The notes below the pieces were generated by a model that had not been told where the DNA came from, searched no databases, and was given only the letters and a program-made list of their open reading frames with translations. From a virus (Duplodnaviria; Caudoviricetes): DNA of 64,000 bases. Each line of letters starts with the position of its first letter. Within the stretch, counting starts at the first letter, position 1. The position numbers and the translations under genes are program-made. Below are positions 3,074 through 63,589 of this stretch, piece by piece. The stretch is taken from IMG/VR virus record IMGVR_UViG_2802429351_000001, positions 1-64,000 of that record; one strand, written 5' to 3'.

Positions 3074-4924
3074 ATGCCAGCACCAAAAGTTAGTTTTAAT
3101 ACTACAAATTTAACTCTACCAGAAATATCAAATTTAGGTGGGGTTAATTTTGTTATGGGCCAATCCATAAGAGGGGGGATAAACAAACCAGATAGGGTAT
3201 TTAATTCTTGGCCAGCTTGGGTAAAAGAATTTGGAGGATTAATGGCCGATTCAGATGCACCAAGGTTTTGCAAGAAAATACTAGAACAAGGGGGAGCAGT
3301 AAGATTTTGTAGGGTAGCCCATTACTCTGACATAACAGATGCTTCTAGTTTGACAGCCATAAAAGCTCAACAACCTAATACCGCTATAATAATTATAGGA
3401 GGTAATTTAATAACTGGTAATATCGTAAACCTTACTATTGATGGAGAGGATTTAGATGCTATCAATTTTAGTAATGATAATGATGAAACAATAGAAAACA
3501 TAATCTTAGCCATAAAAGCCGAGGCTGGTGTATCTAATGTTATATATTCAAAATCAGGAACTACACAATTTCTAACTATTGTTCCAGTAGATACAGATGC
3601 TGTTACTGTAGATACTGCTACTATTACTGGGGGGGCTTCTCAGGCAACTATCGGTGAAATAACTACCAACAAGGTAACAGACCAAACTGGTAACCCATTA
3701 TTCTCTATCAAACCAAAACATGAAGGGGTTGATTATAATAATTTAAGGGTCATTATATCTGGGGGTAGTAATGGGCAACCAGGTTATTTTGATTTAACCA
3801 TACAACATATGGTTGATGTGAACATAGTGGAAACATATAGGAACCTAAGGATAAAAGGTAATCCTACTAAAAACGATTCTGACTACCTATCAAAACTGGT
3901 AGATGCAACAGAACTAGTAGATATACAATATGAAGATCTTTCATACCTATCCGGACAGATAACACCAGTATCAATAGCATTCAATTTCAAAGGTGGTAGT
4001 GATGGTGATGAAATAGTTGATGCTGACTATGTAGGTTCTGAATTAAGCTTTACTGGGTTTAGAGCTTTTGATAATTATGATGATGCTATGCAAATGGGTG
4101 TATTAGATAATAATTCTGATACTGTGAATGTAGCTGGTTCTAATTATTCTAAATTAAGAGGTGATCTAAATTACTTCATACATTTAGGTAATACACTAAA
4201 CACGGCACAAGCATTGATTAACAAAAGAAATTCACTTAACATCGATAATAAGTATGTACTATTTGCCGGTGGAGGTATAAAATTAAGGGATGAATTAACA
4301 GGTGAAGTTTTAGAATCATCTGGTATAGCTGATCTATTAATATTAGCTAATAAATCAGCAGAAGAATTTGGACCATGGTATTCGTTTTCGGGAAATAACA
4401 GGGGCGTAGTACAAGATGCAATTGGGGTTGTAAATAACTTTGGTACACCAGCTAAGTATAAAGACTTGGATGCCCTAGCCGATACCCATATCAATATGTT
4501 TATCCAAAGGGATAATCAAACAAAATTATGGGGTTCATTATCCGGGCAATATGAAGAGGATCAGGAAAGATTTATAAATGTTGTAAGATTAGTTATATAC
4601 ATTAAGAAAAATCTTAAACCAATCCTGGAAGATTTCATAGATGAGCCTAACGATATATCATCTTGGAAAAGATTGTATTTCACAGTTAAACCATTTATGG
4701 ATGACTTGGTAGATAATAGGGCTCTATATTCATATGAATGGCAAGGTGATCAAGATGCTAAGGACATGAATAAATTATCAGTAAATGATCCAGTAAAAGT
4801 ATCTCAAGGAAAATACAAAGTTAGACTAAGGTTATCTGCTATACCGGGTATTAAGGATATAGAAATAGATATGGTATTAACTTCTGCGGGTGTAACTTTT
4901 GAACAAATTTCAGATTTAATCTAA
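3074..4924 (+). CDS. Contractile tail sheath protein
   Basis: 616 aa with N-terminal G..IRGGINKP...SW..WVKEFG and C-terminal RFINVVRLVIYIKK..FIDEPND..W..L...PFMDDLV..RAL; precedes a tube gene. Confidence 0.9.
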   Translation: MPAPKVSFNTTNLTLPEISNLGGVNFVMGQSIRGGINKPDRVFNSWPAWVKEFGGLMADSDAPRFCKKILEQGGAVRFCRVAHYSDITDASSLTAIKAQQPNTAIIIIGGNLITGNIVNLTIDGEDLDAINFSNDNDETIENIILAIKAEAGVSNVIYSKSGTTQFLTIVPVDTDAVTVDTATITGGASQATIGEITTNKVTDQTGNPLFSIKPKHEGVDYNNLRVIISGGSNGQPGYFDLTIQHMVDVNIVETYRNLRIKGNPTKNDSDYLSKLVDATELVDIQYEDLSYLSGQITPVSIAFNFKGGSDGDEIVDADYVGSELSFTGFRAFDNYDDAMQMGVLDNNSDTVNVAGSNYSKLRGDLNYFIHLGNTLNTAQALINKRNSLNIDNKYVLFAGGGIKLRDELTGEVLESSGIADLLILANKSAEEFGPWYSFSGNNRGVVQDAIGVVNNFGTPAKYKDLDALADTHINMFIQRDNQTKLWGSLSGQYEEDQERFINVVRLVIYIKKNLKPILEDFIDEPNDISSWKRLYFTVKPFMDDLVDNRALYSYEWQGDQDAKDMNKLSVNDPVKVSQGKYKVRLRLSAIPGIKDIEIDMVLTSAGVTFEQISDLI

Positions 4925-19565: not shown

Positions 19566-20434
19566 TGAGGGAACCAAGTCTACATATTCGGGAAAAAGAA
19601 CTAGCACTAGTATTAAAAGATATAAAGAAATTCTATGATATAAATAAAATATCTACAGAAAAACTAGCTACCATTATATTAAATAAATCTAAAGGTAAAT
19701 CTTGCAATAATAGGTTAGTGATTATTAGTAATGAAAAATTAAACAGGAAAACAAATCAGGTGCTTAAATCTAAAAAAGAAGATGCATCTTTGTTATCCAG
19801 TTTAATATATATGTTAAGGCAAAAGAAAAAACATAGGGGTATAACCCGGATAGACCAGGACCATAGGGATTGGCCCAAATTAAAAAAATTAGCTTTGGTT
19901 TGTTTGGATTTTTGTAATGATAACAATTTAGATAAAAAAGCTGGTTTCATTAGGTATCTACAAATAGGCTTAGATAAAATCACTTCATATCGTAACTATA
20001 TTGGTAAGTTATTGGATATGGCAGAAAGTATTAACCAGGAATACGAACTTTTACTCCAAATTCAAGATGACACTAATAAACCCGAGACCCAGGAAATACA
20101 TGATTACTATGTTTCAAAAATATCCAAGAATACTGGGTTAAGTGAAAACTATAAAAATAAACCTAATAAATATATTAGTTTTATAAAGGTTAGGGAATTA
20201 ACCGATGAATTAGATATACCCTTCGATATTTATATAGATGCCCAATTTGAGGCATTAGCCTGGGCTAATAGTTTCCCAGACCCTAATCAATTAGTAGGTG
20301 ATAAGGCTATGGAAAGGCTAAATAAATACCTGTATGAAAACAAAATCAGGAAAAAAGGCAAGAAAGAAATTAAAACCAATGATGAACTAAAAGATGCATT
20401 ATTAAAACTAAAACTTAAAACCCGTAAGAAATGA
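19565..20434 (+). CDS. Hypothetical protein in replication cluster
   Basis: 289-aa ORF coupled to both neighbours. Confidence 0.6.
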   Translation: MREPSLHIREKELALVLKDIKKFYDINKISTEKLATIILNKSKGKSCNNRLVIISNEKLNRKTNQVLKSKKEDASLLSSLIYMLRQKKKHRGITRIDQDHRDWPKLKKLALVCLDFCNDNNLDKKAGFIRYLQIGLDKITSYRNYIGKLLDMAESINQEYELLLQIQDDTNKPETQEIHDYYVSKISKNTGLSENYKNKPNKYISFIKVRELTDELDIPFDIYIDAQFEALAWANSFPDPNQLVGDKAMERLNKYLYENKIRKKGKKEIKTNDELKDALLKLKLKTRKK

Positions 20435-21885
20435 TACAGATACATATAGGTAATAATAATAAGGGTAAACTCATAGGACCCATAAAGAAAATAGAAAAGA
20501 TAAAGAAAAAATTCAAAGTTAGGAATCCTAATGCTTATTTTATTAGATTAAAGGGTAATGTTGATCCAGGTTGGGATGGGATGATAAACTATATAACAGA
20601 TTCAGATTATTTTAAAATAGGCCTTCTACCTTCGATTTATAATTATATAAAGGATAATTTAAATACCAAGGTTGAGATAGTAGATGATAGGCCGGGTTTT
20701 AGTAATATCAAACCGAAATATCCAAATAAAATAGGTGATCTAAAACCAAGACCCTACCAAGAGAATGCTATTAAAAAAGTTATATTTAATAAAATAGAAG
20801 GGGTGAATTTCCCAATAGGGGTTTTAAATATGGCTACTAATGCAGGTAAGACTATGATTATGGCTGGTATCTACTTATCATATAAAAGAAAGATACCAGC
20901 CGTAGTGTTGATAAATGATGGGGATCTATTTGAACAATTTAAAAGGGAGATACCAGAATTACTTGGAGAAAAGGTTGGTTTCGTAAGAGGTAAAGAACAA
21001 AACTGGGAGAACTTTACGGTTATCATGGTTCAAACGGTTTCCCGGAATATATCAAAATATAGAAAAAAATTACACAATTTTGGTATGGTATTAGTGGATG
21101 AAGCGGATTTAGGTACAAGTAAATCCTATACATCTATATTAAATAATTGTTATAATGCCCAAATAAGAATAGGTCTATCAGGTACAATCTACATGAGTAA
21201 ACTCAAAAAACATTTACCTAAACAACAAAACCTTAGAAGTTATTTTGGTGATGAATTATATAAGATATCTAAAAAAGAAATGCAGGATAGAGGTTATTCT
21301 ACTAGGATAATTATTAGACTAGTGAGAGGTAATACGAAAGTACTACCAGGCCTCAAGGACAATAGGGATTGGAAACATGAATACGATAAATTAATAACTT
21401 ATAATGAGGATAGGATATTAACTATAGTTGATAGAATTAGGTGGAATGCAAAGATAGACAGGATACCAATTTTAGTTATAGGTCAATTCCATGCCCATAT
21501 AGAACTTATGTATTCTGTTATAAATAAAAATTTAGGAAAGAAGTATAGAATAGCATATGTACATGGGGGGGTAAATTCTAAAACCAGAATTAAAATTCTC
21601 GAAAATTTTAGGGTAGGTAAGATTGATATATTAATATCCTCATTTATTATTAAAAGGGGTAAGAACCTACCACTAACAAAATTATTAATAAACGGGGCTG
21701 GTTCAGATTCACAGGCAACCGTGTTACAGTTAATGGGTAGGATAGAGAGAAAGGATAAAACTAAAAATAAGGCTTATATGGAGGATCTAATGGATCAAGG
21801 TAAATATATATCCAGGCATTCAAAACATAGGGCTATGTACTATAAAAAGGAAGGTTTAAAAGTAATAGAAAATTATAAAAGGTAG
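20431..21885 (+). CDS. SF2 DNA helicase (UvsW-like)
   Basis: RPYQ, ATNAGKT, DEAD, GLSGT, KRGKNLP, QLMGRIER. Confidence 0.9.
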   Translation: MIQIHIGNNNKGKLIGPIKKIEKIKKKFKVRNPNAYFIRLKGNVDPGWDGMINYITDSDYFKIGLLPSIYNYIKDNLNTKVEIVDDRPGFSNIKPKYPNKIGDLKPRPYQENAIKKVIFNKIEGVNFPIGVLNMATNAGKTMIMAGIYLSYKRKIPAVVLINDGDLFEQFKREIPELLGEKVGFVRGKEQNWENFTVIMVQTVSRNISKYRKKLHNFGMVLVDEADLGTSKSYTSILNNCYNAQIRIGLSGTIYMSKLKKHLPKQQNLRSYFGDELYKISKKEMQDRGYSTRIIIRLVRGNTKVLPGLKDNRDWKHEYDKLITYNEDRILTIVDRIRWNAKIDRIPILVIGQFHAHIELMYSVINKNLGKKYRIAYVHGGVNSKTRIKILENFRVGKIDILISSFIIKRGKNLPLTKLLINGAGSDSQATVLQLMGRIERKDKTKNKAYMEDLMDQGKYISRHSKHRAMYYKKEGLKVIENYKR

Positions 21886-21912: not shown

Positions 21913-22302
21913 ATGGCTAAAAAGAAAAGAAAACCTAGAAAAGCTACTAAAGGAGTTGATATACTTAAACCCATAGATATCAACAAGTTTGGGACAAAAG
22001 ATGATCCTTGTTTTGGTAAGGAATATGATCTTAGTACAGATGAGTGTTCTAGATGCGGTGATTCAGAATTATGTGCAGCAGTATTTGGGCAAACCACATT
22101 AAAGAAAACCCGAGATAAAGTAGAATCAAAAAATAGGTTTAAAGATAAAGAATTATTTGAAGATGATAAAAACCCGGCATTAACCAAATGGGTTAGGGAT
22201 AAAAAAGAGGAGGGTTTAAAAAGGTCTGAGATTATAAAAAAGGCCAAGGCAACATTTGGAAGCACTCGGGAGGAGATAAAGAAAATTTATAAAAATTTAT
22301 AA
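21913..22302 (+). CDS. Hypothetical basic protein with Cys cluster (possible Zn site)
   Basis: PCFG...ECSRC...LC; Lys-rich N-terminus. Confidence 0.6.
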   Translation: MAKKKRKPRKATKGVDILKPIDINKFGTKDDPCFGKEYDLSTDECSRCGDSELCAAVFGQTTLKKTRDKVESKNRFKDKELFEDDKNPALTKWVRDKKEEGLKRSEIIKKAKATFGSTREEIKKIYKNL

Positions 22303-22303
22303 T

Positions 22304-22960
22304 ATGGATTTTGAAAAAATAGGGAAGTTAGATCTAACCTTAGCCCAAATGGTAAAAGGTTATAAAGAAAATATCTTATGGTGTATTAATGAATACCAGG
22401 AGTTATACAAAGAAATATTCTCATCTAGGGATGGTATAAAAAACAGTGAGAATTTTTTTACTGATCTAACCATAAAAAATATATACAAACATTATGGTTT
22501 ATCTACCATATACCTAGCCAACATAATAGAGAGTACTGCATTAAGTATAGATAGCGACCTAATTCAGTATGTCTATAATTATGGTAATGCAAATAATCTC
22601 ACACTACCTTCCAAAAACCAGGGTGTATTTATAGTGTTGGGGGATTATATGAATCAGATAAAGTTACTTAAACAAGAAGTTTTCCCTAATTCCGGGTATA
22701 GTATAAATAGCCGAAAATATAAACCCATAAATATTACACAGGATAGAGTAGATTTTTGTAAGATCAAAGTAGTTGATAACCTTATATTCTTAGAAATGTT
22801 TTTTAAAGATTTAAAAAGAACCGAAAACAAGGATATCCATTACGATTATTTAATAGAAAGTTTATTACTATTAATATACATTGCAGATATCATTAATATA
22901 GACAAAGAAATAGCACTAGATGAAACCCACGATAACCAACAATTACTGTTTGAATTTTAA
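22304..22960 (+). CDS. All-helical protein, possibly a divergent dimeric dUTPase/dCTPase
   Basis: Helical pattern and position before the TS genes; canonical motifs not clearly visible. Confidence 0.3.
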   Translation: MDFEKIGKLDLTLAQMVKGYKENILWCINEYQELYKEIFSSRDGIKNSENFFTDLTIKNIYKHYGLSTIYLANIIESTALSIDSDLIQYVYNYGNANNLTLPSKNQGVFIVLGDYMNQIKLLKQEVFPNSGYSINSRKYKPINITQDRVDFCKIKVVDNLIFLEMFFKDLKRTENKDIHYDYLIESLLLLIYIADIINIDKEIALDETHDNQQLLFEF

Positions 22961-23720
22961 AACAAGCCAAGAAGCTTGGGAAGGATTAAATGCTTTCTTT
23001 TTAAACAAATCCGAATTTATATTCAATAAAGGTTTAGGTGCTTTCGTTAGTGGCCAAGTTGTAATGTATGATGTAGATGTAAAAATTGAAGAACCAAAAG
23101 TATCCCCCGATTTTGATTTTGGTAATACTTTTGGATACCGTAAACAAAAATGGTCGGGGCTGGTAAATAATTACCTAGACCAAGAATCACTTGGGAATTT
23201 TATAGGTAGGGTATTAGAAGCTGAGAATATTAAAAAACAAAAGAATTATAATATCTCTATGGCTTTCTCAAATAATCACGACCATGGTAAAAATTGTTTA
23301 TTAAGTCTTACAGCTATACGTAGAAATATGTATGAACTACCTATCTTAAATTTTACACTAAGATCATCTGAGATTACCAAAAGACTATTAATGGACCTAT
23401 TACTTATACAAAGAATAGGGGAAGAGATATATCCAAACTTTACCATTAATATGAAGGTAATTAATATGTACCAGGACCCAGAAGCATTCTGTATGTTCGA
23501 CAGTTTCAAACCTATAAAATCAATCTTAGAAATAGAATGTAAGAAAACACATTACCAAAAGAAAATAACCCGGATATTAAGAAAATTTAAAACAGTTGAT
23601 ATAAAAGAAATAAAATACAAGGTCCACAAAAGATGTGTAAGGCAATTACAAAGACCAAATGGAATACCCTTATCAGGTGATAGACCAATGTATGCAAAAG
23701 AATTAAAACTACCTAAATAA
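22920..23720 (+). CDS. Thymidylate-synthase-fold protein 1 (divergent)
   Basis: KNCLLSL (catalytic Cys position), LRSSEITKRLLMD. Confidence 0.7.
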   Translation: MKPTITNNYCLNFKTSQEAWEGLNAFFLNKSEFIFNKGLGAFVSGQVVMYDVDVKIEEPKVSPDFDFGNTFGYRKQKWSGLVNNYLDQESLGNFIGRVLEAENIKKQKNYNISMAFSNNHDHGKNCLLSLTAIRRNMYELPILNFTLRSSEITKRLLMDLLLIQRIGEEIYPNFTINMKVINMYQDPEAFCMFDSFKPIKSILEIECKKTHYQKKITRILRKFKTVDIKEIKYKVHKRCVRQLQRPNGIPLSGDRPMYAKELKLPK

Positions 23721-24532
23721 TGAAAACAAGGACAGTACAAATACAATTGTATAATACTATAGATTTTTTAGTAAAGTATGGGAATGAGGTAAAATCAGGT
23801 ACATGGCAAGCCAATAAAGATTTCTCTAATGAGATCATGTTGGTTCAAAGAAATTTACAAATGGTTGTACCTTGTGGTGATGGATTAGACCTTAATAAAA
23901 TATGGGCTGATCAACCATGGGCAGAGGACCATTTTAATGAAAGGGTTGGGGGTATACCTACTAACCCTGGGGAGACATATAAATATTGGCCATACGCTAA
24001 TTTCAAAGAGGGTGATGATCCCTACCAAGATGGCAAGGTATTTAGTCATACCTATCAAGAAAGGTTTTGGCCAAGGATTAGTAAAATTTTCCAATATCAA
24101 TTAGAACCCCCAAAATTTGGTAGTGAATTGGTAAAACCAAAAGGTATAAGATATAAATATGGCGATTTACAAGATGTAATAAACCAACTAAAGGAAAACC
24201 CATTAACCAGGCAAGCTTATTTACCCATCTTTTTTCCAGAGGATACTGGGGCTGTTCATAAACAAAGGGTACCATGTACTTTAGGTTATTATTTTTGGAT
24301 AGAAAATAATAAACTATACATGAATTACATTATTAGAAGCTGCGATGCTCTTAGACACTTTAGAAATGACGTATATCTAACAATTAGACTATTACAATAT
24401 GTAGCAGAGAAATTAAATATTGGTTTAGGTGATACTACTTTTTATATCTTTAATTTCCATGTTTTCAAGAATGATTTATATGCTTTAAATAAAAGAGAAA
24501 AAAAGATATGTCAAGAACTAACAATAGGATAA
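23720..24532 (+). CDS. Thymidylate-synthase-fold protein 2, dCMP hydroxymethylase/methylase-like
   Basis: LKENPLTRQA, VPCTLGY.F, IRSCDALRHFRNDVY (compare T4 gp42 RSND..FGFRND), NFHVF. Confidence 0.8.
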   Translation: MKTRTVQIQLYNTIDFLVKYGNEVKSGTWQANKDFSNEIMLVQRNLQMVVPCGDGLDLNKIWADQPWAEDHFNERVGGIPTNPGETYKYWPYANFKEGDDPYQDGKVFSHTYQERFWPRISKIFQYQLEPPKFGSELVKPKGIRYKYGDLQDVINQLKENPLTRQAYLPIFFPEDTGAVHKQRVPCTLGYYFWIENNKLYMNYIIRSCDALRHFRNDVYLTIRLLQYVAEKLNIGLGDTTFYIFNFHVFKNDLYALNKREKKICQELTIG

Positions 24533-24936
24533 GTAGGGAAAATATGTTTATAGAGATCCTACAAACAATATCTAAAAGATCTACATGCCCCAGAAAACAA
24601 GTTGGGGCTATTTTAGTTAAAGAGAACAGGGTTATAGCTATGGGTTATAATGGGGTATTACCCGGGGTAAAGCCCGAAGAGGGTATAGACCATATAACTG
24701 GTGTTAGTAAAACCGTACATGCCGAGGCCAATATAATTTCATTTTGTGCTAAACATGGAATAGCAACCGCAGATTCAGAATTATACATAACCTTATCACC
24801 TTGCGTAAAATGTGCTGAGTTAATAGTTCAAGCCGGTATAAATAAGGTAAATTATATAGAACAGTATAGGGATACTTCTGGCCTAGAATTATTAACTAAA
24901 CAAAATATACAAATATGCCAAGTAAGTTTAAAATAA
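24508..24936 (+). CDS. dCMP deaminase
   Basis: STCPRKQVGAILV, GYNG, HAEAN, LSPCVKC. Confidence 0.92.
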   Translation: MSRTNNRISRENMFIEILQTISKRSTCPRKQVGAILVKENRVIAMGYNGVLPGVKPEEGIDHITGVSKTVHAEANIISFCAKHGIATADSELYITLSPCVKCAELIVQAGINKVNYIEQYRDTSGLELLTKQNIQICQVSLK

Positions 24937-27158
24937 TAAGAACTAAATCTACATTAAAAAGGGTTATTAGATATTGTAAACAAACTGGTTATGCTTGTGT
25001 CGATTTTGAAACCAATGCTTTACCTATAAACCATCCTTTATTTTACCCAACCGTACTCGGTATCACTTTTCAACCTGGTTCTTCATATGTATTACCGCTA
25101 GCACACTTTGATTCACCTTTTAAAAAATCTTGGCCAAAACTATTTAAATTATTTTGTAAGGAGGTAATAGAAAATCCTGAAATTATAAAGGTAGCCCAAA
25201 ATGCTAAATTTGAATATAAAATATTCTTAAAATATGGTTATGAGATAAAAGGTAGGATATTTGATACCATGTTAGCTAAATATCTTTTAGATGAAGAAAA
25301 ACCAATGGGTTTAAAACCTATGGTAAACAATTTTATACCAGAATACGCAGGATATGAGGAAGATTATGATGGTGCTAAATTACCTTGGGATCAAAAACCC
25401 TTAAAAGGTTTATCAGAATATTGTGGGTTAGATACTGACCTTACTTTAAGATTAATGTTTTTCTATGAGGATAAACTTATAAAAAATAATCTATATTCTT
25501 TATTCCGTAATATGTTGATGATGGGTGTTAGGGTATTAGGTGATTCTGAATACGGAGGTATGGATGTAGATATACCTTACCTAGATAACCTTATTATAGA
25601 ATATGAGAATTACCTAGAGGAAAATGATAAAAAAATTAGGAATACTAAAACCCTTAATAAATTCCAAAAATGGTTAGATCAAAGCAGGATTAATAAATTA
25701 ATGGACAAGGTTGTTCAGGAAATAGAAGAGGTAGAAGAAGAGGTAGAAGAAATCAAGGCCGAAATAAAAAGGCTAAAGAAAAAGGTTAAGAAGAAAAAAC
25801 ATAAAGGGGCTTTAGAATTAATACATAAAAATGAGGTTGTATTAAGACGTAAAGAAAAATCTATAAGAACCAGAGAAGATAAAATAGATAGGTATAGGGC
25901 TAGGGAGATGTCTACTAAAACAGAGGTTAAATGTTTAGAACCTATAAACTTTAATTCCTCAAACCAAATGGTGGATTTATTCTTTACATCACCCCAAGGT
26001 TTTCAATTTGATATTATAAAATACACAGTTGATAAGAAAACTAAAAAAGAAAGTGATAGACCTTCTACAGATGAAGAGGTACTAGAACAATTAAAACCTT
26101 TAGATAAATCTGGTTTTGTAGAAGGTTTATTAAGACATAGGGAATTAAGTAAACTATATTCTACTTATATAAAAGGTATTCGTGATAAATGCATTGATGG
26201 TAAAGTACATGCTAGGTTCTTATTAGAGGGGACGGTTACAGGTAGATTAAGTAGTCAAAACCCCAATTTACAAAATATACCTAGGGATACAACTGCTAAG
26301 GATATAAAGAAAATGTTTGTACCTCCAAAGGGTTATTATCTATTACAATTGGATTATTCACAGGCCGAATTAAGGGTAATGGCTGCACAGGCCGGGGAAG
26401 AAACCATGATCCGGTGGTTTAAAGAAGGAAAAGATATTCACCTTACCACCGCCTTAAAAATGTATAGGCAAGAAGAAAGGTATGATGAAATATTTGAGGT
26501 ATTAGAAAAAGAAGATAAAAAGGACCCAAGGTATACTGAGTGGAAGGTTAGAAGGAAATATGCTAAAACTATTAACTTTGGTATAATATATGGACAGGGG
26601 GTTCCTAAATTGGCTAACTCATTAGGCTGGACTATAGAGGAGGCTCAAACATTCTTAAATGAATATTTTGATACTTTCCCAAAAATTAGAGAATTTATCA
26701 AGCAACAACATAAAATTGCACACCGGGATGCTTTTGTAAGAAATGTATTTGGTAGAAAACGTAGATTACCTAAAATTGATTCATATGAGAAATGGGAAGT
26801 TGCCGAAGCTGAAAGACAATCGGTGAACGCACCAATCCAAGGGGCTGCTTCAGACTACACCCTATTCTCTTCAATTATAATTTGGGAAGAAGTAAGGAAA
26901 AAAAATATACCTATATATAAACCACAGGTATATACAGTACATGATTCCTTGGGTTATTATGTTAGGGCCGAAGATATACATGATGTAGTTCCTAAATTAG
27001 AAAAGATTTGTGCAAACCCTGAAACTATGGAATGGTTCAATTTTCAAATTGACGATGTTACTATGAAAGTAGATTTTGAGCTAAGTAGTATCAGTTGGCA
27101 AGCTTTAAAAACTTATGATCCAAAGATTGACTATACTAAACAAATTGGACTATTATAA
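24915..27158 (+). CDS. polA: Family A DNA polymerase with 3'-5' exonuclease
   Basis: DFET, QNAKFE, DTML, YCGLD, TGRLSSQNPNLQNIP, DYSQAELR, RKYAKTINFGIIYG, VHDS. Confidence 0.95.
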   Translation: MPSKFKIIRTKSTLKRVIRYCKQTGYACVDFETNALPINHPLFYPTVLGITFQPGSSYVLPLAHFDSPFKKSWPKLFKLFCKEVIENPEIIKVAQNAKFEYKIFLKYGYEIKGRIFDTMLAKYLLDEEKPMGLKPMVNNFIPEYAGYEEDYDGAKLPWDQKPLKGLSEYCGLDTDLTLRLMFFYEDKLIKNNLYSLFRNMLMMGVRVLGDSEYGGMDVDIPYLDNLIIEYENYLEENDKKIRNTKTLNKFQKWLDQSRINKLMDKVVQEIEEVEEEVEEIKAEIKRLKKKVKKKKHKGALELIHKNEVVLRRKEKSIRTREDKIDRYRAREMSTKTEVKCLEPINFNSSNQMVDLFFTSPQGFQFDIIKYTVDKKTKKESDRPSTDEEVLEQLKPLDKSGFVEGLLRHRELSKLYSTYIKGIRDKCIDGKVHARFLLEGTVTGRLSSQNPNLQNIPRDTTAKDIKKMFVPPKGYYLLQLDYSQAELRVMAAQAGEETMIRWFKEGKDIHLTTALKMYRQEERYDEIFEVLEKEDKKDPRYTEWKVRRKYAKTINFGIIYGQGVPKLANSLGWTIEEAQTFLNEYFDTFPKIREFIKQQHKIAHRDAFVRNVFGRKRRLPKIDSYEKWEVAEAERQSVNAPIQGAASDYTLFSSIIIWEEVRKKNIPIYKPQVYTVHDSLGYYVRAEDIHDVVPKLEKICANPETMEWFNFQIDDVTMKVDFELSSISWQALKTYDPKIDYTKQIGLL

Positions 27159-31964: not shown

Positions 31965-32597
31965 ATGAAGAGTAAACAAATATTTATAGCCGGGCCCTCT
32001 GGGTCCGGTAAAACAACTTTGGCCAATTATATTTCTATCCGATATAGAATACCTTTCATAGAAGGTTCTTCAAAACCAATTTGGCCAGAGTTTAATATAA
32101 CTTCACACCTAGATATAATAAATAGAAGTGCTAAAGATAAAGATTTTGCGGTAGAGTTTCAAGAAAGGTTATTATATTACAGAACAGAAAAACTTGAAGG
32201 TGTAAAAGAATTTGTAACAGATAGGAGTTTTATAGACAATCTGGTTTATTTTACATTACAGGCTGGACCCCACCTAAACACGGAATCCCATAATATTTAC
32301 ATTGAAATGTGTAGGGAATCTATAGAAAAATATGACCCCACTATTTTATTCTTGGATATCAATGATTTAAATATAAATCTGGAAAATGATAATATGAGAG
32401 TAAATAACCGTTGGTTTCAAGAGGCTACAGGTTCTTTATTTAGAGATTATATTAATAGGAATATAATTTGTAGTAAAGAGTTGATAGTACCTATAAATGA
32501 ATGGGATTGGGAAACTCGTATAAATACTATAGATAAACTTTTTGACCAAACAAAAGAGAACAAATGGAAAAGCATAATAAAAAAGTTAAATATATAG
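31965..32597 (+). CDS. Deoxynucleoside monophosphate kinase (P-loop)
   Basis: GPSGSGKTT, VTDRSFIDNLVY. Confidence 0.75.
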   Translation: MKSKQIFIAGPSGSGKTTLANYISIRYRIPFIEGSSKPIWPEFNITSHLDIINRSAKDKDFAVEFQERLLYYRTEKLEGVKEFVTDRSFIDNLVYFTLQAGPHLNTESHNIYIEMCRESIEKYDPTILFLDINDLNINLENDNMRVNNRWFQEATGSLFRDYINRNIICSKELIVPINEWDWETRINTIDKLFDQTKENKWKSIIKKLNI

Positions 32598-62377: not shown

Positions 62378-62556
62378 AGAAGGAAAATATCATGACATTA
62401 ACTTTTAAAGGGTCACAAATAAAAACCTTTAATAGCTTAATTAATAAACTATCTAATAAAACAGTTGGCTTTAATAAAATAACAACACTAACTGATACTG
62501 AAGAATCATTATTAGATAAAATTAATAAAGAACTTAATAAAAAGAAAGATGACTAA
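62371..62556 (+). CDS. Hypothetical protein
   Basis: Overlapping ORF. Confidence 0.5.
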   Translation: MVKKENIMTLTFKGSQIKTFNSLINKLSNKTVGFNKITTLTDTEESLLDKINKELNKKKDD

Positions 62557-63589
62557 AACTAGAAGGCGTAAATTAAAAATATTAGGCGTATGTGGGGGTA
62601 ATGGGGTAATTCTCCACCCCCTACGTAGGTACGTCATAGGAAATATAGAAGATAGGGGGGTATTTAAAACCCCCAAGAATTTACAATGGTACACTAATTT
62701 CAAGGTACCATTTGTTGATGATGTAATGGTTGCTGGTTTTTTATTTAAAAAGGTAGACATAGTAATAGGGGCACCCAATTGTGGTAGTTCTTCTATACTG
62801 GGTTTTACTGGTAATAAGAAAAGAAAAAACCCTACTGATGATCCATCCATGAAGATGTATTTTGAAACAGTTTTGAAATATAATCCTAAGATATGGATAA
62901 TGGAAAACCTACCAGCTTTGTTAAACCATATAACCATGCAGGACTTTAAGGAAAAATTTCCAGATTATCTTTTCGTTTTTCATACAATGAGTATGGCTGA
63001 ATTAGGTAATTCCCAGAAAACCCGTAAAAGGTTAGTGATTGTAGCTTTACATAAATCACTACCAGCAGAAGTATATATGGCCTTTTCACAGGTAGAACCC
63101 CAGGCTGAGCCTAAAAGGATTAAGGATTTAATTGGCGATTTGGAAAAGGATAATCCTAAGTTAGCAAATGTAAGAGAACCTGGTAAGTATAAAATTAAAA
63201 TGGGTAAGAAAGCTTATTCTATGAACGATATAAAGGTTACATGGGATGAAAATCTTAAAGGTAAGAAATATTGGCCCATGGATTTTGAAAAGAAGGATTC
63301 ACCTTATATACCAGGAGTTTATAGGTTGTTACCGGAAAATTTCCCACAAACAGTTAGGCAAGATGCTAGGCAATTTAGACCAGATGGAAAACCTATGTCC
63401 CCAAGGGAATTAGCCAGGATTCAAGGTATACCAGATAAATTTAAATTATATGTACCAGAAGAAGTTACCCATGGTAAAAAACCTAGTTATTATATAAATA
63501 GAGCTAGGATAACAGTAGCTAAGGGAGCTCCGTATGAATTAGGTTTATGGGTTAAAGAAAAGATAAAGGTTGCTAGAAAATTTCTTTAA
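62549..63589 (+). CDS. Divergent orphan DNA cytosine-C5 methyltransferase
   Basis: Motif I-like VCGGNG, IV-like GAPNCGSSS, VI MENL, VIII SQKTRKRL, IX SPRELARIQGIPDKF, X-like VAKGAP. Confidence 0.8.
   Translation: MTKTRRRKLKILGVCGGNGVILHPLRRYVIGNIEDRGVFKTPKNLQWYTNFKVPFVDDVMVAGFLFKKVDIVIGAPNCGSSSILGFTGNKKRKNPTDDPSMKMYFETVLKYNPKIWIMENLPALLNHITMQDFKEKFPDYLFVFHTMSMAELGNSQKTRKRLVIVALHKSLPAEVYMAFSQVEPQAEPKRIKDLIGDLEKDNPKLANVREPGKYKIKMGKKAYSMNDIKVTWDENLKGKKYWPMDFEKKDSPYIPGVYRLLPENFPQTVRQDARQFRPDGKPMSPRELARIQGIPDKFKLYVPEEVTHGKKPSYYINRARITVAKGAPYELGLWVKEKIKVARKFL

Follow-up and report, generated by a model that had tools for sequence, protein, structure and literature searches.

Two Thymidylate-Synthase-Fold Genes in the Replication Module of a Phage: a Candidate Pathway for C5-Modified Cytosine

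The TS1 and TS2 genes and their products

The present study concerns two adjacent genes, here called TS1 and TS2, in a phage of the class Caudoviricetes (IMG/VR virus record IMGVR_UViG_2802429351_000001). The DNA analysed, positions 1 to 64,000 of that record (hereafter the window), makes up the opening 64 kb of a genome that is complete at 78.6 kb (78,590 bp), with direct terminal repeats, an estimated completeness of 100% and a GC content of about 30%; DNA of this phage is found in marine metagenome DNA runs, with no RNA run among those listed. All genes given below with window coordinates lie on the forward strand. TS1 (22920-23720) encodes a divergent protein of 266 amino acids (aa) assigned to the thymidylate synthase (TS) fold by an AlphaFold2 model and by profile comparisons; an alternative TTG start at 22950 would yield a 256-aa form. 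TS2 (23720-24532) encodes a 270-aa protein of the ThyA family (PF00303). The stop codon of TS1 and the ATG of TS2 share one base (23720), in keeping with the translational coupling proposed in an earlier note on this DNA. A gene for a zinc deaminase of the deoxycytidine monophosphate (dCMP) family and one for a family A DNA polymerase (PolA), both recognised in that note as neighbours, follow with overlaps of 25 nucleotides (nt) between TS2 and the deaminase gene and 22 nt between the latter and PolA.

As judged from alignments, TS2 is a divergent ThyA-family protein with an aspartate of the cytosine type, Asp217. Its match to PF00303 (8.6e-11; 41.9 bits against a cut-off of 24.3) covers the C-terminal half of the protein, and Foldseek relates it to many ThyA structures (E value, 3e-12). 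When TS2 is aligned by MAFFT with Escherichia coli ThyA, phage T4 gp42 and the TS of phage Xp12, the alignment runs ungapped through the catalytic core: Cys186 corresponds to E. coli Cys146, and Arg206-Ser-Cys-Asp209 to Arg166-Asp169, giving TS2 the catalytic cysteine and the Arg166-Ser167-x-Asp169 motif of the family. The segment RSCDALRHFRND (residues 206-217; nt 24335-24370), to which the earlier note had drawn attention, ends with Asp217. This residue falls at the position of E. coli Asn177 and T4 gp42 Asp179, in an FRND motif identical to that of T4 and identically spaced. The same pairing emerges independently from a phmmer comparison with the PDB, in which Asp217 is matched to the Asp of MilA and AfhB, AfhB being the top-scoring PDB sequence for TS2 (9e-9). 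An Asp rather than an Asn thus aligns with Asn177, as the note had maintained.

Conservation was scored in 76 to 80 IMG/VR relatives at 35-62% identity (n = 80 for TS1 columns and n = 76 for TS2 columns). In TS2, residues Cys186, Arg206, Ser207, Asp209, Asp217 and Arg183 are invariant (76/76), and so is Arg164, the equivalent of E. coli Arg126. The neighbour of Asp217, position 216, is Asn in 57 relatives, Asp in 18 and Cys in one. We considered Asn216 as a register-shifted version of the uracil-reading Asn and ruled it out, since such a residue could not be replaced by Asp in 18 of the 76 relatives. TS2 further differs from E. coli ThyA in having Thr187 at the His147 position, Ile205 at Gln165 and Arg183 at Leu143, in carrying a large conserved N-terminal insert, and in a short C-terminus that extends 10-37 residues past the His207 equivalent (versus 57 in E. 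coli). It does not display the traits of a TS specific for deoxyuridine monophosphate (dUMP), as it has Asp instead of Asn at position 177 and lacks the long C-terminal segment and a conserved Tyr94. Nor does it have the acidic residue found at the Leu143 position of T4-type dCMP hydroxymethylases, Arg183 being the residue in all relatives. The Asp169-to-Asn change, a signature of the flavin-dependent 5-hydroxy-dCMP synthases AfhB and RB69 gp48 (PMC13326640), is absent from both proteins: Asp209 of TS2 is invariant (76/76), as is Glu151 of TS1 (80/80).

The relationship of TS1 to this fold is far less apparent from its sequence. Taken singly, TS1 has no match in Pfam, among PHROG families of assigned function or in the PDB; the PDB search is negative with a profile as well, and ten remote TS1 relatives also find no match in Pfam. 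The AlphaFold2 model (built on a 50-sequence alignment; pLDDT score, 94.6) matches TS-fold structures only, with VIA Z scores of 14.1 for AfhB, 13.2 for MilA and about 10.7 for many ThyA entries. With AfhB (9iqu), 180 residues align at a root mean square deviation of 3.9; the margin of AfhB over MilA is below one Z unit, and the E value from Foldseek to TS-fold structures is 5e-6. The alignment covers the core sheet and helix J of the fold and places the nucleophilic Cys in register. In hhalign comparisons, a narrow TS1 profile aligns with the TS2 profile through the Cys, Arg, Asp-or-Glu and Asp positions at an E value that is weak alone (0.15), and a broader TS1 alignment matches a set of canonical TS sequences at 1.2e-5. 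Cys126 registers with Cys146 in both profile comparisons; Tyr73 registers with Tyr94 (motif GYRKQKW versus VYGKQW), Arg148-Ser-Ser-Glu151 with Arg166-Asp169, and Asp159 with Asn177. The segment RSSEITKRLLMD (residues 148-159; nt 23361-23396), likewise located correctly in the earlier note, runs from Arg148 to Asp159. We conclude that TS1 is a very old paralogue sharing the fold of TS2.

Residues Cys126, Arg135, Arg148, Glu151, Lys154, Arg155 and Asp159 of TS1 are invariant in all 80 relatives. In agreement with the earlier note, TS1 keeps a Cys at the catalytic position, has Glu in place of Asp169 and Asp at the 177 position, and lacks the His of the HxY motif, which reads Asn/Gln-x-Tyr. The catalytic residues persist in remote members at approximately 16% identity; members from actinophages replace the conserved Glu151. 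Other parts of the canonical active site are missing. The hhalign alignment leaves a gap over E. coli residues ~46-82, the segment carrying Glu58 and Trp80/83, and the columns aligned to Arg126/127 are Asn/Tyr or variable. TS1 thus has neither the Glu58/Trp80/Trp83 segment nor the Arg126/Arg127 pair of the folate-dependent members of the fold.

Distribution of the module and neighbouring genes

Gene order was scored for 80 viral contigs related to the window, 78 of them also for the gene preceding TS1. TS2 comes next after TS1 in 76 of the 80, two of the four exceptions being truncated loci, and PolA follows TS2 in 78. The two genes overlap by 4 nt at 40 of 76 junctions and are separated by 190-600 bp at 20. 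TS1-like genes without an adjacent PF00303 gene were found in three loci (L090, L014 and L073). At L014, a 191-aa open reading frame (ORF; L014:3331-3906, forward strand) takes the place of TS2; its C-terminal half, inspected by eye only, has the appearance of a degenerate TS core without the catalytic Arg, the Asp and the specificity residue. A 47-kb phage contig (L088:3454-9387) has its TS1-like gene between two PF00303 genes (214 and 225 aa) and also carries a dUTPase_2 gene, a deaminase gene and a PolA fused to a uracil-DNA glycosylase domain. The cultured Bacteroides phage BF486P2 (L006) has two TS homologues of the Asp177 type (856-1617 and 3689-4369) flanking a dUTPase gene; in each homologue the residue at the Leu143 position is acidic.

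TS2 occurs in two subtypes. The one in the window (subtype B) is characterised by Thr147, a hydrophobic residue at 165 and Phe209; the majority form (subtype A) has Ser147, Gln165 and Tyr209 and is mostly found without a deaminase gene and with a dUTPase_2-family enzyme. The deaminase gene is present in 15 of 16 subtype B loci as compared to 3 of 60 subtype A loci (18 of 80 loci overall). A mirror-tree comparison of 32 non-redundant genomes, based on simple distances, showed TS1 to track PolA and the helicase (r, 0.87-0.88) and TS2 to track neither (r, 0.5-0.6). Between TS1 and TS2 themselves, the partial correlation was 0.27; there was no co-evolution of the two above background, which with 32 genomes constitutes weak evidence. 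Since TS1 follows PolA and the helicase and TS2 does not, the subtypes of TS2 seem to have replaced one another while TS1 stayed constant. TS1 is also the better conserved of the two proteins (mean distance, 0.96 versus 1.18). On these comparisons, TS1 qualifies as a core gene of the replication module that is conserved and passed on vertically, with an apparently intact nucleophile and no recognisable folate site.

The family reaches well beyond the immediate relatives. TS1 has more than 340 homologues, a search of 1.84 billion representatives gives 212 clusters at 50% identity, and cultured phages are among the carriers. Pseudomonas phage PMBT14 has the order kinase, pyrophosphohydrolase, gp48 (TS1), gp47 (TS2), deaminase, PolA; Mycobacterium phage Muddy has the same module (gp49 to gp44), which is also present in Gordonia phage CherryonLim and in 85 actinophage records in total. 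A broad TS1 profile, which includes CherryonLim gp51, detects Muddy gp47 (E value, 9.5e-37) and PMBT14 gp48 (3.7e-20); CherryonLim gp51 itself is matched by hhalign at 4.7e-4, with the narrow A1 profile only. Foldseek gives a TM score of 0.65 for TS1 versus PMBT14 gp48. The three cultured-phage proteins resemble TS1 in their position upstream of a TS gene and in their conserved Cys, Arg and Asp, at an identity of about 16%. TS1 thus belongs to a widespread, uncharacterised family within a known fold, whose members bear the label "hypothetical protein" in every cultured-phage record. Our literature search found no description of a second TS-like protein, of DNA modification in PMBT14 or Muddy, or of record MT121964.

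In the window, TS1 and TS2 lie within a replication block on the forward strand. The block comprises genes for a DnaB-like helicase, a primase-like protein, a superfamily 2 helicase (20431-21885; matches to ResIII and Helicase_C), a conserved protein of 129 aa (21913-22302) and an orphan ORF of 218 aa (22304-22960), followed by TS1, TS2, the 142-aa deaminase (24508-24936; PF00383, 3.4e-22; PDB 2hvv, 1e-28) and PolA with its 3'-5' exonuclease (24915-27158; PF00476, 2.6e-86; PF01612, 1.5e-16). The helicase, which anchors the module upstream, and the 129-aa ORF between it and the TS genes are present in 70 and 73 of the 80 related loci, respectively. Downstream of PolA lie genes for a gp32-like single-stranded DNA-binding protein, RecA/UvsX, a 5'-3' exonuclease, a P-loop kinase, Mre11/Rad50 and a PD-(D/E)XK nuclease. 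Among 50 window ORFs scanned together, one has a pyrimidine-dimer DNA glycosylase domain like that of T4 endonuclease V (PF03013, 1.5e-14). There is no PF00303 gene other than TS2 in the complete genome.

The slot upstream of TS1 is occupied by a nucleoside triphosphate (NTP) pyrophosphatase of the dUTPase_2 family in 64 of 78 related loci. In the window the slot holds the 218-aa ORF, which the earlier note had considered a possible dNTPase. This idea is not supported: the ORF has no match in Pfam (PF08761 included), PHROG or Atlas, finds only itself among 5.8 billion proteins and by jackhmmer, and is not significantly related to a dUTPase_2 profile of 44 clade members (E value, 0.14), leaving positional analogy as its sole link to such enzymes. 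The kinase, also pointed out in the note, fared better in part. The P-loop protein encoded at 31965-32597 passes for AAA_28 in Pfam and has a PHROG match to thymidylate kinase (1.1e-10), and its score for the Pfam dNK family is below the cut-off; the kinase gene directly follows PolA in 11 of 80 loci and is inside the module in PMBT14 and Muddy. These data weakly support a kinase of the deoxynucleoside monophosphate (dNMP)/thymidylate type, which would probably provide the phosphorylation step.

Near the end of the window (62549-63589) lies a gene resembling C5-cytosine DNA methylases (PF00145, 5.7e-20). It encodes the motifs VCGGNG, APNCG and ENLP, the P-N-C catalytic motif being unusual, and is present as one copy in 9 of 10 further complete clade genomes (10 of 11 in total), with either TS2 subtype. 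A near-core C5 methylase gene beside TS enzymes of the cytosine type makes an odd pairing. Palindrome avoidance, a proxy for unmodified DNA, was evaluated over the whole genome: GATC is moderately rare (134 occurrences versus 204 expected) and GAATTC strongly so (3 versus 24), and GGCC and CCGG are slightly commoner than expected.

Proposed pathway and alternative explanations

Published surveys provide the context for interpreting this arrangement. Of the deaminase genes in cytosine-modified contigs, 70% adjoin a TS gene, compared to 6% in unmodified ones; 85% of those TS enzymes are predicted, from active-site residues correlating with dCMP preference, to make 5-hydroxymethyl- or 5-methyl-deoxycytidine (5hmdC or 5mdC), and the commonest neighbours are PRA-PH and PolA (10.1101/2024.12.05.627091). 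Five of seven TS enzymes tested in that study made 5mdCMP, and their deaminases act on C5-modified deoxycytidine nucleotides, feeding dTTP. The positions at which modified and unmodified contigs diverge are His147 and Asn177 (PMC8670742), occupied in TS2 by Thr and Asp. As a neighbourhood of this kind is tied to cytosine-modified DNA, we read TS2 as a candidate transferase of one-carbon units to C5 of dCMP and the deaminase as a drain. TS1 and TS2 would then form the conserved core of a DNA-precursor module whose order is NTP-pyrophosphatase slot, TS1, TS2, dCMP-family deaminase and PolA; a dNMP kinase is encoded in the vicinity. TS2 would transfer a one-carbon unit from methylene-tetrahydrofolate to dCMP, giving 5-methyl- or 5-hydroxymethyl-dCMP; the kinase would phosphorylate the C5-modified product for incorporation into phage DNA, and the deaminase would divert part of the modified deoxycytidine nucleotide pool to thymidine nucleotides, as do the deaminases of similar neighbourhoods. 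TS2 resembles the hydroxymethylases rather than the Xp12 enzyme in its short C-terminus and missing Tyr94, and resembles Xp12 in its link to a deaminase and its hydrophobic residue at 165. TS1, for its part, has kept the Cys, a Tyr94-type base, Arg166 and the Asp, and has lost the folate segment and Arg126/127. This combination argues that TS1 most likely has an activity of its own, attacking C6 of a cytosine nucleotide in the absence of a canonical folate site, and that it probably does more than pair with TS2 in a dimer. We give this interpretation of the module, in which the product of TS2 is built into DNA, a probability of about one half.

Several observations weigh against it. The Tyr94 region of TS2 is variable or deleted, leaving no conserved equivalent of this residue, and the C-terminal closing segment of ThyA is absent. 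The published rule by which the Leu143 position, hydrophobic or acidic, indicates the product (PMC13326640) does not accommodate the invariant Arg of TS2. No recognisable dCTPase was found in the genome with Pfam and PHROG. Of the 80 related loci, 62 lack the deaminase, which therefore cannot be essential to the TS1/TS2 pair. Most important, a C5 methylase needs an unsubstituted C5 and would be without substrate if every cytosine were already substituted there; its conservation in the clade argues against full replacement and suggests that unmodified cytosine is available in the DNA. Replacement might be incomplete, the module might serve only to make thymidylate via 5-methyl-dCMP, or the methylase might have some other role. 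The C5-substituted dCMP pathway advanced in the earlier note thus agrees with the published association of Asp177-type TS, deaminase and PolA, and finds in the methylase an indication to the contrary.

The second of these possibilities is developed in the strongest alternative, in which the DNA is not modified by this module. TS2 would methylate dCMP, the deaminase would turn 5-methyl-dCMP, or the corresponding triphosphate, into thymidine nucleotides and the kinase would handle dTMP, so that deoxycytidine nucleotides supply dTTP for a genome of 70% A+T in a route bypassing dUMP and dUTP. Virion cytosine would then be ordinary, methylated only at the target sites of the methylase. Much in the window is compatible with this scheme: the strict linkage of its TS2 subtype to a deaminase (15/16 versus 3/60), a clade-conserved methylase that needs unmodified cytosine, a GC content of about 30%, the lack of a recognisable dUTPase or dCTPase in Pfam and PHROG scans of the genome, and thymidylate kinase as the best family match of the kinase. 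Labelling data from Xp12, in the account cited in 10.1101/2024.12.05.627091, also have 5mdC nucleotides feeding thymidine. Set against this, the great majority of the neighbourhoods described by MetaGPA come from contigs that had been selected for full modification of cytosine, relatives with subtype A keep TS1 and TS2 without any deaminase, and Pfam scans of the window ORFs found no dihydrofolate reductase (DHFR), although methyl transfer consumes tetrahydrofolate. The scheme also leaves TS1 without a role. We consider it rather doubtful, if the most serious competitor of dCMP modification for DNA.

The question of TS1 is central also to the next alternative. Enzymes of the TS family form dimers in which the active sites are shared, and one could imagine an obligate TS1:TS2 heterodimer with a single working active site, in which Arg164 of TS2 is lent to TS1, or TS1 is a scaffold. 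The absence of the Arg126/127 pair from TS1, the invariance of Arg164 in TS2, and the adjacency of the genes in 76 of 80 loci, commonly with overlapping start and stop codons, would suit such a complex. It is nonetheless an unlikely one. The invariance of TS1's own catalytic residues means that it is not a mere scaffold, and TS2 has the full set of residues of a homodimeric family member. The distinct evolutionary behaviour of the two proteins in the mirror-tree analysis and the occurrence of TS1-like genes with no adjacent PF00303 gene, or 190-600 bp away from it, also speak against obligate partnership. We tentatively raise the possibility, which the odds do not favour, that TS1 founds a new class of TS-fold enzymes: Cys-dependent and folate-independent, it would act on dCMP or on the 5-methyl or 5-hydroxymethyl product of TS2, the two together producing an undescribed pyrimidine or opening a route to one.

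A third alternative, that TS1 is a folate-independent hydroxylase of the flavin type, in the style of AfhB and RB69 gp48, and that the phage makes two C5-substituted cytosines, is very improbable: TS1 lacks the folate segment, and AfhB heads both the structural matches of TS1 (Z, 14.1) and the PDB sequence matches of TS2 (9e-9), but the Z margin over MilA is below one, the diagnostic Asn is replaced by invariant Glu in TS1 and invariant Asp in TS2 (PMC13326640), and Pfam scans of about 88 ORFs found no glycosyltransferase (as the earlier note had remarked for the window) or NDP-sugar gene. Equally hard to credit is the notion that TS2 is an ordinary dUMP-methylating TS fed by a dCMP deaminase, with TS1 a decaying duplicate; a deaminase paired with a TS is the classical layout for making dTMP and databases annotate the relatives as thymidylate synthase, but the invariant Asp at 177, the Asp found at position 216 in 18 of 76 relatives, the Thr at the His147 position, the short C-terminus and the lack of a conserved Tyr94 all contradict it, as does a TS1 better conserved than TS2 with its catalytic residues invariant.

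Should the carriers have modified cytosine, there would be effects on restriction and CRISPR sensitivity, and on the sequencing, cloning and engineering of phages that are widely used; the module is present in the therapeutic phage Muddy. With its intact nucleophile and no folate site, TS1 may represent a second case, the flavin-dependent 5-hydroxy-dCMP synthases being the first, in which the TS fold has been recruited to non-folate chemistry. If it does found a new class, then hundreds of uncultured phages, together with PMBT14, some 85 actinophages and Muddy, would carry a DNA modification that has not been looked for. Cultured carriers with easy hosts exist, making the question directly testable, and the C5 methylase gene beside cytosine-type TS enzymes could serve to separate the modified-DNA model from the thymidylate bypass.

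Comparison with known systems

Among the closest known counterparts of the arrangement is the neighbourhood described by MetaGPA (PMC8670742; 10.1101/2024.12.05.627091), which has the same order of TS homologue, deaminase and PolA, an Asp at 177, a residue other than His at 147 and, as in most relatives of the present locus, an NTP pyrophosphatase (PRA-PH/MazG) upstream. Unlike these, TS2 forms a distinct branch, with its N-terminal insert, Arg at the Leu143 position and short C-terminus, and its genome is without a recognisable pyrophosphatase. MetaGPA is Pfam-based and therefore could not see TS1.

In the 5-methylcytosine pathway of Xanthomonas phage Xp12, the TS is about 25% identical to TS2 over 122 residues (E value, 8e-10) and likewise has Asp at 177, a hydrophobic residue at the Gln165 position and a deaminase gene directly downstream. 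The two also differ: Xp12 TS has a long ThyA-like C-terminus, Tyr94 and Asn at the Leu143 position, its gene is adjacent to one for DHFR, and a HAD hydrolase gene stands in the place of TS1. T4 gp42, which functions with the gp56 dCTPase, the gp1 kinase and the cd deaminase, shares with TS2 the FRND motif, a Thr after the catalytic Cys, a short C-terminus and the logic of acting at the dNMP level; it differs in its low identity (21%) and in having an acidic residue where TS2 has Arg, and T4 possesses glucosyltransferases and no TS1-like paralogue. AfhB and RB69 gp48 (PDB 9iqu and 9iqc; PMC13326640) are compact TS folds that act on dCMP, and include the structure closest to TS1; their Asn at the Asp169 position sets them apart from TS1 (Glu) and TS2 (Asp). 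TS2 with its deaminase and PolA represents a known type of arrangement, and TS1 is the uncharacterised part of the module.

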